In this document: positions 4,975 to 49,080 of the stretch, piece after piece | Layout of the letters: each line of letters starts with the position of its first letter | How positions within the stretch are numbered: position 1 is the first letter of the stretch | NCBI GenBank assembly: GCA_037147235.1 | Contig: JBAWVO010000001.1 | Span: forward strand, 1 to 58,479 | Source of the DNA: Planctomycetota bacterium | GTDB taxonomy: Bacteria; Planctomycetota; Planctomycetia; Pirellulales; Thermoguttaceae | Reading direction: 5' to 3' | Length of the DNA: 58,479 nt | The notes under the pieces: model-generated | What the model was told of the DNA's origin: nothing | Database searches by the model: none | What the model saw: the letters and a program-made list of their open reading frames with translations, nothing else | Translations under genes and position numbers: made by a program

Positions 4975-5159
4975 GGTGTATTAGCTTAGGGTAAGTTGCC
5001 AAAATCGGCAAGCCGGAGTAGAGAAATTGTCTCTTCCGGGAGCAGATGATATAATGGGCAGTAATCGAAACAACCTTGCGCGATTCTGGGCGGTGCCCGA
5101 CAGCGCACAAGCCTTTGGCTTCCGGCGAACGGCACACGGGGTGTGCTGCTACTTTGACT

Positions 5160-16032: not shown

Positions 16033-17400
16033 TTATCGCACGATGCAGCGGAAGCGGAAGACGCCGCCCTTGCCGGGCGACAGCGGCTCGCTGAGTACGC
16101 AACGCACGATCAGCGACTCGCCCTCGTTGGGCTGCGTGGAGAACTGGGCCTTCAGGCTGCACTGAGCACTGTCGGGCACATACTCCAGCCGCGTCGTCAG
16201 GCTGTCGACAATCTGCACACTGCCGATAGGCTGATTGCCCACGTTGTCGAAGCGGATCGTGAACGAGACCTCGTCGCCCGGCTCGGCGACCGGCGTGGAT
16301 GCGACCTTGACGACCCGCAGCTTCGGATTGGGCGCCGAGCCAATCCCGAAGGTCTCTTGCGGTTTCTGACTGACCACCGTGGCACCGGCAGTCTGATGAT
16401 CCAGATAAATCTGCACGGCCTGCTTGTGGCTCCAAGCAACGGCCGCCTGCGTACCCTTGGCCAGGATCGGTTCCTCGTGGCCGACATAAACACCGGTGCG
16501 GATAACTGCCAGGTTCTCGTAGACGCGATAGAAGTTGTCGAATGCCTTGGGCCGCAGCTCGGCCAAGAGCGTGGCGTGTGATTTGCGACTGCGGAGCTGT
16601 AGGGCCGGGTTGGTGCCGATGTCGCGGACAGCCTGTAGGTTCTGCCTGTTCAGCCCCACCGGTTCGCTCGTGCGGGGGCCGAGGGGCTTGACCGGCTCGA
16701 CCACGCCCGTAGCGCGATTCCGCTGCTGGTTGATCTCCACGTCAACGATCTGCCGCACGGCGTGGAATCGCGGGCTGTAGAGGCTTACCTTGTTGCTTGG
16801 TTCGACCACGGTGCGGCCGTCAAGCGTGCTATAACGGGCGACGGTGTCTTCCATTTCAAGGCCCAACAGCTCGCCCTTGGGGCCAACGCGGATCGGCGGA
16901 CCGGCATTGCCGCCATCGTGAAGGTATTCGTCAGCCGGCCAGGGCGGAATGATTCCCGGCGGCGTCCAGGGACCGGCGGCCGTGTAGGCCAGGGGAACGC
17001 CGAGTTCCATACCCGGAGGACCGATGGGACATGGTGCCCCCGGCGGCAAGGCGGCATATCCACCTTGCGCGGTTTTGGGGACGGACTTGGAAGTCCATCC
17101 TACGGGTGTGGTTTTGTCGACGGACTCGGAGGTCCATCCTACGGGTGTGGCCGTACTTTGCGGCAAGGCTTGGTTGGGTGAATGCGAAGCCGGGCTGCGG
17201 CATGAGCAGAGAATCAGCGTGCCCAGCACAATGATCGCAAGCCGCCAGGCGCGAATCGATCCTTGGTTGCTTAGGATCGGCGAATCAATAACTGCCGTAT
17301 TTTGCGCACTCGCTGAGCGGGGGGAGGACGGCACACGGAGTGTGCCTGCTACTTTTCTTGCGACACTTATTGATTCGCCGTTGCTTGTCGTTTGATTCAT
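16033..17400 (-). CDS. DUF11 (conserved repeat domain) surface protein with a repeat-derived N-terminus
   Basis: The C-terminus, PGDEVSFTIRFDNVGNQPIGSVQIVDSLTTRLEYVPDS, is DUF11-like. A signal/lipobox-like segment (WRLAIIVLGTLILCSC) follows about 50 element-derived residues. The start ATG overlaps the upstream stop (ATGA at 17397-17400). Confidence 0.8.
   Translation of the reverse strand: MNQTTSNGESISVARKVAGTLRVPSSPRSASAQNTAVIDSPILSNQGSIRAWRLAIIVLGTLILCSCRSPASHSPNQALPQSTATPVGWTSESVDKTTPVGWTSKSVPKTAQGGYAALPPGAPCPIGPPGMELGVPLAYTAAGPWTPPGIIPPWPADEYLHDGGNAGPPIRVGPKGELLGLEMEDTVARYSTLDGRTVVEPSNKVSLYSPRFHAVRQIVDVEINQQRNRATGVVEPVKPLGPRTSEPVGLNRQNLQAVRDIGTNPALQLRSRKSHATLLAELRPKAFDNFYRVYENLAVIRTGVYVGHEEPILAKGTQAAVAWSHKQAVQIYLDHQTAGATVVSQKPQETFGIGSAPNPKLRVVKVASTPVAEPGDEVSFTIRFDNVGNQPIGSVQIVDSLTTRLEYVPDSAQCSLKAQFSTQPNEGESLIVRCVLSEPLSPGKGGVFRFRCIVR
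17072..17149. repeat. 2 x 39-bp tandem repeat with a palindromic core, inside the DUF11 gene
   Basis: gttttggggacggacttggaagtccatcctacgggtgtg is followed by gttttgtcgacggactcggaggtccatcctacgggtgtg. These encode TPVGWTSKSVPKT and TPVGWTSESVDKT. The core GGACGGACTTGGAAGTCCATCC is a palindrome. Confidence 0.85.
17269..17380. mobile_element. MITE/RPE-like palindromic element, copy 1 (inside DUF11 gene codons ~8-45)
   Basis: Terminal inverted repeats are ggcgaatcaataa (17279-17291) and ttattgattcgcc (17367-17379). The central hairpin is GGCACACGGAGTGTGCC. It aligns with 30719-30807 and, inverted, with 48591-48699. Confidence 0.7.
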
Positions 17401-47601: not shown

Positions 47602-49080
47602 ATGCACCTCTTGGACGAAACCATCGTCGCGATCGCCTCTCCGCCAGGCGGCGCGGCGATGGGGATCGTGCGGCTAAGCGGTCCGGATCTGAGAAGCTGC
47701 CTCGAAGGCTGCTTCCGGCCGGACCCCTTCGTTCATCTACCCTCGCTCACGCAACCAACAGCCGTGCCCGGCTGTCTTTGGCTTGCCGGTTTTGCATCTC
47801 CGCTGCCATGCACACTCTACCTCTGGCCCGGCAAACGAAGCTACACGGGCCAACCGGTGGCCGAGGTTCACACCTTCGGTTCGCCACCGTTGCTGGAAGC
47901 CGTCGTGCGGGCTGCCTGCTCCGGCGGCGCGCGGCCTGCCGAACCGGGTGAGTTTACGCTCCGCGCATTCCTCGCCGGACGTATCGACCTGACTCAGGCC
48001 GAGGCGGTGTTGGGAGTGATCGATGCCACCGGTTCCGCGGAACTCGACGCCGCGCTCAAGCAGCTTGCCGGCGGGCTGGCCGGTCCGTTGAGGCTGCTGC
48101 GCGACGATCTGTTGGAACTGCTGGCCCACCTGGAGGCCGGATTTGACTTTGCCGACGAGGATCTGCCGTTCATCACCTCCGAGGAACTTCTGCGGCAACT
48201 TGACGCAGCCACCGCCCAGGTCGATCAACTCGTTAAGAGGCTTGCCCTCCGAAGTGAAGCCGCCGTGCGGGTCCGCGTGGCGTTGGTCGGGCGACCGAAT
48301 ACCGGCAAGAGCAGTCTCTTCAACGCGATGGCCGGTCATACCGGGGCCATGGTCTCCGATCAGCCCGGCACAACCCGCGATTATCTCACGGCCGATCTGG
48401 ACCTTGATGGCCTGAAATGCCAGTTGATCGACACGGCCGGCATTGAGGACCGCCTGCTGGAAAGCGATGCCGCGACGGTCGAGGGTGCCGCGCAGGATAT
48501 GTCGCACGAGCAACTCCGTACGGCCCACATCCGGGTGCTGTGTCTCGAAGCCGGAAGGGAACTCGACGCATGGGAGCGGGAGACGATCCAGGATAGAATA
48601 AGTGTCGCAAGAAAAGTAGCAGGCACACTCCGTGTGCCGTCCGACCCCCGCTCGGCGAGTGGGCAAAACACGACAGTTGTTGATGCGACGATCCCTAGCG
48701 AGCCAAACCTGATCGTCGTGCTCACCAAGTGCGACCGGGGGGAATTTTCTCCCAACCACGCCGGGTCAATCTTGGAAACCAGCGCCGTCACCGGCCTTGG
48801 GATTCATAAACTCAAGGAGGCGATTCGTTCGGCCGCGGTTCGTGCGGGCGGTCCTCAGACCGACGTAGTCGTCGGCACGGCCGTACGCTGTAGCGAATCA
48901 TTGCGATTGTCCGCCGCTTCGCTCGATCATGCCCGTGAAGCTGTGCGCGGGGGTCTCGGCGAGGAACTGATCGCCATCGAGGTCCGCGTCGCCTTGAGCC
49001 AGCTTGGCAAGGTAGCCGGCGCAGTCTACACCGAAGACGTGCTGGACCGAATCTTCAGTCGCTTCTGCATCGGAAAATAG
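47602..49080 (+). CDS. mnmE: tRNA modification GTPase MnmE (with a ~36-aa in-frame repeat-derived insertion)
   Basis: The N-terminus is ETIVAIASPPGGAAMGIVRLSG. G1 is GRPNTGKSSLFN, G3 is DTAG and G4 is TKCD. The C-terminus is FCIGK. Confidence 0.9.
   Translation: MHLLDETIVAIASPPGGAAMGIVRLSGPDLRSCLEGCFRPDPFVHLPSLTQPTAVPGCLWLAGFASPLPCTLYLWPGKRSYTGQPVAEVHTFGSPPLLEAVVRAACSGGARPAEPGEFTLRAFLAGRIDLTQAEAVLGVIDATGSAELDAALKQLAGGLAGPLRLLRDDLLELLAHLEAGFDFADEDLPFITSEELLRQLDAATAQVDQLVKRLALRSEAAVRVRVALVGRPNTGKSSLFNAMAGHTGAMVSDQPGTTRDYLTADLDLDGLKCQLIDTAGIEDRLLESDAATVEGAAQDMSHEQLRTAHIRVLCLEAGRELDAWERETIQDRISVARKVAGTLRVPSDPRSASGQNTTVVDATIPSEPNLIVVLTKCDRGEFSPNHAGSILETSAVTGLGIHKLKEAIRSAAVRAGGPQTDVVVGTAVRCSESLRLSAASLDHAREAVRGGLGEELIAIEVRVALSQLGKVAGAVYTEDVLDRIFSRFCIGK
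48591..48699. mobile_element. MITE/RPE-like element, copy 3 (inverted relative to copies 1 and 2), inside mnmE
   Basis: gaataagtgtcgcaagaaaagtagcaggcacactccgtgtgccgtccgacccccgctcggcgagtgggcaaaacacgacagttgttgatgcgacgatccctagc aligns along its length with the reverse complement of 17269-17380. Confidence 0.7.

Follow-up and report, generated by a model that had tools for sequence, protein, structure and literature searches.

A truncated MITE copy nested in frame in the mnmE gene of a planctomycete

Can a mobile repeat become part of a conserved GTPase and leave it working? This question is raised by the mnmE ORF in the window, that is, the whole stretch of 58,479 nucleotides of planctomycete DNA analysed here. 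A first-pass annotation, made from the letters alone, had proposed an in-frame repeat insertion in the G domain of MnmE. This was borne out: a genome-wide repeat occupies 48597-48694, and the reading frame is open. The explanation that I favour, with good confidence, is that a truncated MITE came to lie in mnmE after the lineage split, is translated in frame, and is a tolerated passenger in a working MnmE. In outline, a 110-bp MITE copy would have inserted into mnmE after divergence from the closest sequenced relative. The MITE family is one in which ISAzo13-type inverted repeats surround a GTAG REP-like hairpin, with TWA as the usual target and a 3-bp duplication. The outer 13 nt of the left inverted repeat are missing from the mnmE copy, and the copy would persist as a 102-nt in-frame, translated insertion. 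Its 34 residues are placed at the end of alpha3, right before beta5, in a length-variable loop. The features are as follows.

47602-49080, + strand: mnmE ORF, 492 aa with the insert, the sole copy in the genome (ORF list and Pfam)
48594-48596, + strand: left-junction TAG, found again at 48696-48698 (the most economical parse of the breakpoints; alignment with locus L061)
48598-48699, + strand: in-frame insert of 34 codons (I333-S366), 102 nt (protein alignments; comparison of the DNA with L061, where the site is empty)
48597-48694, + strand: stretch homologous to MITE consensus positions 14-110; 98 nt, of which the base at 48644 is extra, 94.9% identity
48597-48607, + strand: remnant of the left terminal inverted repeat (consensus positions 14-24), the first 13 nt being unrecognisable
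48616-48638, + strand: GTAG-tagged REP-like hairpin at the centre of the element, with a 7-bp stem and a 3-nt loop
48647-48663, + strand: second small hairpin of the MITE (RNA folds)
48671-48694, + strand: complete right terminal inverted repeat, followed by CTA and then by GC as in canonical junctions
17274-17384, - strand: second genic copy, full length, in a lipoprotein-like gene; 111 nt plus a 3-nt duplication make 38 codons

The mnmE gene, its insert and the empty site

It was found that TrmE_N (PF10396, residues 7-127), MnmE_helical (PF12631, residues 130-489), and MMR_HSR1 (PF01926, from residue 225) each score over the Pfam cut-off in the 492-aa ORF, which thus has the three-domain architecture of MnmE. 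The G1 (GRPNTGKS), G3 (DTAG), and G4 (TKCD) motifs and the C-terminal FCIGK are all present in the translation and are conserved across the alignments. The placement of the insert between DTAG and TKCD with FCIGK intact, already noted at first sight, was confirmed by the translation and the alignments. The MnmE (TrmE) proteins of T. maritima, Nostoc, C. tepidum, and E. coli (1xzp, 3geh, 3gee, and 9hip) share the three domains, the G motifs, and the FC(I/V/L)GK ending with the window protein, which differs in having 34 more residues between alpha3 and beta5 and TKCD as its G4. The genome to which the window belongs (G000) is a draft of 6.99 Mb in 622 contigs, and a search of it found no second mnmE. 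The remaining matches to mnmE in this genome are either sequences with 32-35% identity to a portion of the G domain or further copies of the MITE. In the low-contig assemblies G001, G005, and G011 (loci L037, L032, and L040), mnmE is broken across two frames, which may be an indel error of long-read assembly rather than a genuine frameshift.

Where does the insert begin and end? The nearest homologue in the protein database, P0002, has 458 aa, exactly 34 fewer than 492, in agreement with the remark in the first-pass annotation that the ORF is longer than the MnmE norm. The DNA of P0002 (locus L061) is 87% identical to the window across mnmE. The P0002 sequence runs ...ELDAWEREKVQDR-DLNPIVVLTKCD, and its window counterpart runs ...ELDAWERETIQDR-(34 aa)-EPNLIVVLTKCD. 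D331 and R332 belong to the ancestral protein, since QDR is also what the closest relative has; thus, by protein alignment, the insert is I333-S366, encoded by 48598-48699. The bounds of 48591-48699 given earlier were therefore right at the end and 7 nt early at the start, where they took in the two ancestral residues. The segment is absent from the 15 relatives aligned and from the 14 close homologues aligned separately, so that the comparison with orthologues upheld the insertion.

As shown by the DNA alignment, the empty site in L061 reads CAGGA-TCGC-GAC, and the window reads CAGGA-TAG-(insert)-TAG-C-GAG. The insert is flanked by TAG on both sides or, alternatively, by CTA on the right side only. 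The simplest parse of the breakpoints is a truncated element of 99 nt with a TAG duplication. The breakpoints are explained equally well by a canonical insertion of 114 nt and a later in-frame deletion of 15 nt, and a one-base replacement is a third parse compatible with them. The left junction is unlike a canonical transposition product. Only a single sense phase through the mnmE copy is free of stop codons, and it is the phase in use.

The MITE family and its partner

Is the inserted segment a member of a mobile family? The window contains three copies of a 17-nt palindromic core where 0.02 would be expected, which excludes chance. In the genome of the window, the segment itself had 42 scored matches at 87-97% identity and, in a separate blastn search, 285 matches, 166 of which begin exactly at 48597; the consensus had 289. 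The consensus was derived from 111 near-full copies aligned with their flanks, and on the left the family extends past the mnmE copy by 13 nt. End-to-end copies number 92 of the 289, and 78 of these 92 are exactly 110 bp long. The canonical MITE has a 110-bp consensus with terminal inverted repeats of about 24 bp and a central GTAG-tagged hairpin, and the folding energy of an intact copy is -59.4 kcal/mol (z -8.69). Identical trinucleotides flank 71 of the 92 end-to-end copies (TAA in 37, TTA in 32), that is, a 3-bp TWA target duplication. These 92 copies show a weak GC-TWA-GC target preference; downstream, the flank reads T/W/A, then G (49/92) and then C (39/92). The MITE assignment follows from the length classes, the inverted repeats, and the target duplications. 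At the family level, the repeat is short, non-coding, and multicopy, with terminal inverted repeats, a target duplication, and ends shared with an IS, and its copies are mostly intergenic. Of the mobile palindrome first described, the mobility thus stands, while the mere palindrome gives way to a MITE with 24-bp inverted repeats, TWA duplications, and ISAzo13-like ends.

The mnmE copy is a truncated member of this family. At the left repeat, the window sequence CGATCCAGGATAG matches the consensus GGATCGGCGCATC at only 5 of 13 positions, and these 13 nt are gone, while the right repeat is complete. It departs from the consensus at about 5% of its positions, with private differences. Its fold is no better than those of shuffled sequences (z -0.93), the long stem being lost, and it is probably no longer able to excise. 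As a side observation, a scan for terminator-like structures picked up the core hairpin (48622-48638, - strand), which is followed by a T-rich tail, on the antisense strand only. Both genic copies are oriented with the terminator-like reading antisense to their gene.

Which element could have moved the family? In G008, the closest species, there is an IS of 1,348 bp whose ends are 1 and 2 mismatches away from the MITE ends and which has TTA/TAA flanks. Its ORF matches the ISAzo13 transposase family NF033519 at 327.7 bits against a cut-off of 200 bits. Only the terminal 24-29 nt are common to the MITE and this IS; the interior of the MITE, a GTAG-tagged 7-bp hairpin and the second small hairpin, is not derived from the IS. 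A search for PF07592 found none in the G000 draft; this domain is present in 7 of the 11 other genomes of the genus. PF13359 was likewise not found in G000. As for an autonomous partner within G000, the family ends are never more than about 110 bp apart, save for two pairs that come from separate copies. The DDE_Tnp_1 loci of this genome were also considered, and none of the 11 carries the MITE ends.

The second genic copy lies 31 kb away from mnmE. It was found in the n-region of the signal peptide of a lipoprotein-like (DUF11-type) gene, where the frame used through the element is the same as in mnmE. The orthologue of this gene in G008 is 96.6% identical in amino acids and has an empty site, reading MNQTTSNQGSIRAW (MNQTTSNQGS...) without the segment. 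The first five bases of the left repeat of the 17274-17384 copy, GCAAC, are the same as the bases after the right duplication. The canonical length plus the duplication makes 113 nt, which breaks the frame. A length variant with one more nucleotide accounts for 9 of the 111 near-full copies, and both verified genic copies belong to this class (the mnmE copy by its extra base at 48644). That both fall into the rare frame-preserving class has a probability of roughly 0.005 by chance, and frame-preserving genic copies are what purifying selection on genic insertions predicts. In total, 18 candidates with an open frame were screened, and these two hold up. The other 16 open frames through copies are spurious-looking frames of high G+C content or cases with the element upstream of the likely start, such as bioB on contig C61.

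The altered loop and the fate of MnmE

Does MnmE tolerate 34 additional residues at this position? An AlphaFold2 model built with 92 homologues (mean pLDDT 80.3) has a helix at residues 323-342, made of alpha3 and the first ten insert residues. It is followed by a coil at 343-369, whose stretch 352-365 has a pLDDT under 50, and then by strand beta5 (370-375), in which the confidence is back to about 92. In this model, the insert occupies the alpha3-beta5 connection as a helix extension and a low-confidence coil, so the loop placement expected for the insert was recovered by structure prediction. A Foldseek search gave solved MnmE structures as the best structural matches of the model (E about 1e-26), and the alignment with T. 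maritima TrmE runs to the end of its alpha3 and picks up again past the insert. The length of the alpha3-beta5 loop varies among orthologues. In the Ras-like topology, this connection is on the opposite side from the nucleotide pocket and the switch regions. The contacts between MnmE and MnmG involve the helical domain (PMC12397908). With moderate confidence, the window MnmE is predicted to be functional from its intact motifs, its dN/dS of 0.19, and the presence of an intact mnmG, and it most likely still works with MnmG. Translation probably runs through the insert, which I regard, again with moderate confidence, as a tolerated passenger and not a new functional module.

The alternative that survives best, although I consider it improbable, is that the insertion inactivated MnmE and that mnmE is a young pseudogene whose frame is open by chance. 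The gene is dispensable in some bacteria, which lends this view some room; the description of MnmE as an essential GTPase in the first-pass annotation overstates what is known. Several frames of the element are free of stop codons (two of the six frames of the MITE consensus contain stops), and an in-frame, stop-free insertion should arise by chance in roughly one in several cases. Therefore, the intact ORF alone is no proof of function. The MnmE equivalogs are the top NCBIfam matches of the 492-aa ORF and span residues 5-492, yet they stay under the strict cut-offs (276.5 bits against 380 for NF003661, and 224.4 against 252.6 for TIGR00450). Against a pseudogene, the 492 codons contain no frameshift and no stop, and every position that is invariant across the 92 homologues is retained. 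The dN/dS of mnmE against L061 is 0.19 for the whole gene and 0.28 for the G domain, a value that integrates all the time since the split from L061 and not just the period after the insertion. The mnmG gene of the genome is an intact open frame of 614 aa that matches the MnmG family and the Pfam family GIDA. In addition, the divergence of the copy from the consensus suggests that time has elapsed without decay, and the insert sits in a loop whose length is variable among orthologues.

A slightly less probable alternative is that the insert has been co-opted, so that the longer alpha3 and the new loop form a new interaction or regulatory surface on MnmE. The mnmE genes of two relatives hold different repeat-derived inserts in other loops of the G domain. 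In G009 (L041:1390-1494, - strand), an extra segment of 105 nt lies in frame between G3 and alpha2 and has 46 matches in its own genome, one of which spans almost the whole segment at 88%. In G020 (L036:1810-1908, - strand), an in-frame extra segment of 99 nt lies after G4 and has 49 matches in its own genome, mostly 27-nt units that are often inverted pairs. Thus, such inserts persist repeatedly, and in G000, G009, and G020, three different repeat families have entered three different loops of the MnmE G domain. The immobilised state of the mnmE copy, which is probably unable to excise, would also suit co-option. However, the insert was found in the genome of the window only, its peptide is a low-confidence coil without motifs, and the same peptide is present in an unrelated signal peptide. 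Moreover, neutrality in a tolerant loop also predicts persistence.

It is very unlikely that a metagenome assembler threaded the repeat into mnmE as an artefact. Such an error is conceivable in a draft of 622 contigs in which 64 of the 289 repeat matches lie at contig ends. Nevertheless, in the Logan run that holds this locus best, one contig covers 48000-48626 and another covers 48652-49080 with no differences, so each junction is crossed from unique sequence into the element by a separate contig. This run may be the data of the assembly itself, and contigs hide rare alleles. No empty-site join was found among the Logan contigs, where the low-depth pieces of the same species in run X2 stop short of the junctions. 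Furthermore, the flanks are adjacent codons in the orthologue, the length is exactly 34 codons, and the copy has private differences from the consensus. An RNA run, X8, covers 48761-48949 only and comes from a relative; it gives no evidence of mnmE expression here. That the segment is cut out of the transcript or the protein, in the manner of an intron or an intein, is scarcely credible, being favoured by the discrete boundaries alone and opposed by the lack of an Rfam family in 48400-48900 (E up to 1), by the absence of Pfam intein or homing domains from the ORF, and by the membership of the segment in a mostly intergenic MITE family.

Known elements, loop growth and the GTAG core

The tolerated, truncated MITE in mnmE has counterparts in other bacteria, since in-frame intragenic copies of MITEs and REPs are already well documented (Rickettsia palindromic elements, or RPEs, ERIC, QMITE, and REP). 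The RPEs are short palindromic mobile elements that lie in frame in conserved housekeeping genes and are read through into a peptide that appears to suit the fold (PMC10969869, PMC3733652). They carry a terminal CGTC tag (PMC3733652), and about half of them are within ORFs (PMC10969869, PMC3733652). The mnmE insert resembles them as an in-frame, read-through copy of a short palindromic mobile element in a housekeeping gene. In contrast, its family is rarely genic (2 of about 174 copies with a length of 60 nt or more, or about 1%), has a GTAG core instead of CGTC, ISAzo13-type inverted repeats, and a TWA duplication, and has a canonical length (113 nt with the duplication) that breaks the frame. 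The mnmE insert thus behaves like an RPE without being one.

Among IS-derived MITEs, the QMITEs of Coxiella (PMC5896051) are similar in that they are non-coding, of about 110 bp, with inverted repeats, duplications, many copies, and ends that match an IS, and in that in-frame intragenic copies are found occasionally (PMC5896051). The mnmE family differs from them in that its partner IS belongs to the ISAzo13 family and was found in a sister species but not in the G000 draft, and in that its interior is a REP-like hairpin; the mnmE copy also lacks 13 nt of one end. REPs located within coding sequences have been described, as have GTAG repeats of the PVC superphylum (PMC3733652). The family shares with the GTAG REPs of that study the GTAG tag, the 7-bp stem with a 3-nt loop, and the high repetition, with solo units and inverted pairs in relatives, but here the REP-like unit is carried inside a DDE-type MITE.

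No repeat insertion in MnmE was found among the matches listed in the literature, which was searched by title and abstract. Such cases are little described in the phylum. The mnmE insert opens no new mechanism. It is a clean and datable case, from a phylum that has received little study, of selfish DNA that became part of a conserved enzyme, with a known empty site, a known partner IS, and a second in-frame copy nearby. It also pinpoints a loop of the MnmE G domain that tolerates 34 extra residues, and for annotators it is a warning that an unusual peptide in a planctomycete protein can stem from a repeat.

Is this common in the MnmE proteins of the planctomycete family? The homologues P0007 and P0013 have in common a peptide in the alpha3-beta5 loop (type NRTNGTYET.MSHGS.ESY), which looks like another repeat-derived segment whose source genome is outside the 200 family genomes searched. 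I tentatively suggest, as a possibility that is rather less likely than its negation, that the three length-variable loops of the MnmE G domain in this family (G3-alpha2, alpha3-beta5, and post-G4) have been built largely by repeated, independent in-frame captures of REPs or MITEs. The three repeat families of G000, G009, and G020 agree with this idea. If it is true, the growth of loops in housekeeping proteins of planctomycetes would have a general source in repeat insertion filtered for 3n lengths.

The GTAG core itself is found in 266 copies in G000, as GTAG followed by CA and then by the 7-bp stem with its 3-nt loop. The central module of the MITE thus has what defines a GTAG-tagged REP, namely the tag beside a short, G+C-rich stem-loop and a high copy number, and it fits with the GTAG REP superfamily of PMC3733652. 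The 30-39-nt core (48616-48638 and 5131-5147 in the window) keeps 97-100% identity between genera and between families of the order. The relatives G005, G006, G010, G015, and G029 have it alone and, often, as inverted pairs 40-80 nt apart, which is a REPIN-like arrangement.

In G000, seven matches to Y1_Tnp were found, four of them strong; a comparison with the positions of the core linked none of the strong ones to it. At positions 35100-35900 of contig C21, two other GTAG-tagged palindromes, of the GTAGCCGTGGG...CCCACGG and TCGCGTAGCGAC types, flank an IS200-like or RAYT-like Y1 transposase gene, and the GGCACAC core has one copy at a distance of 188 nt. This locus is a possible REPtron.
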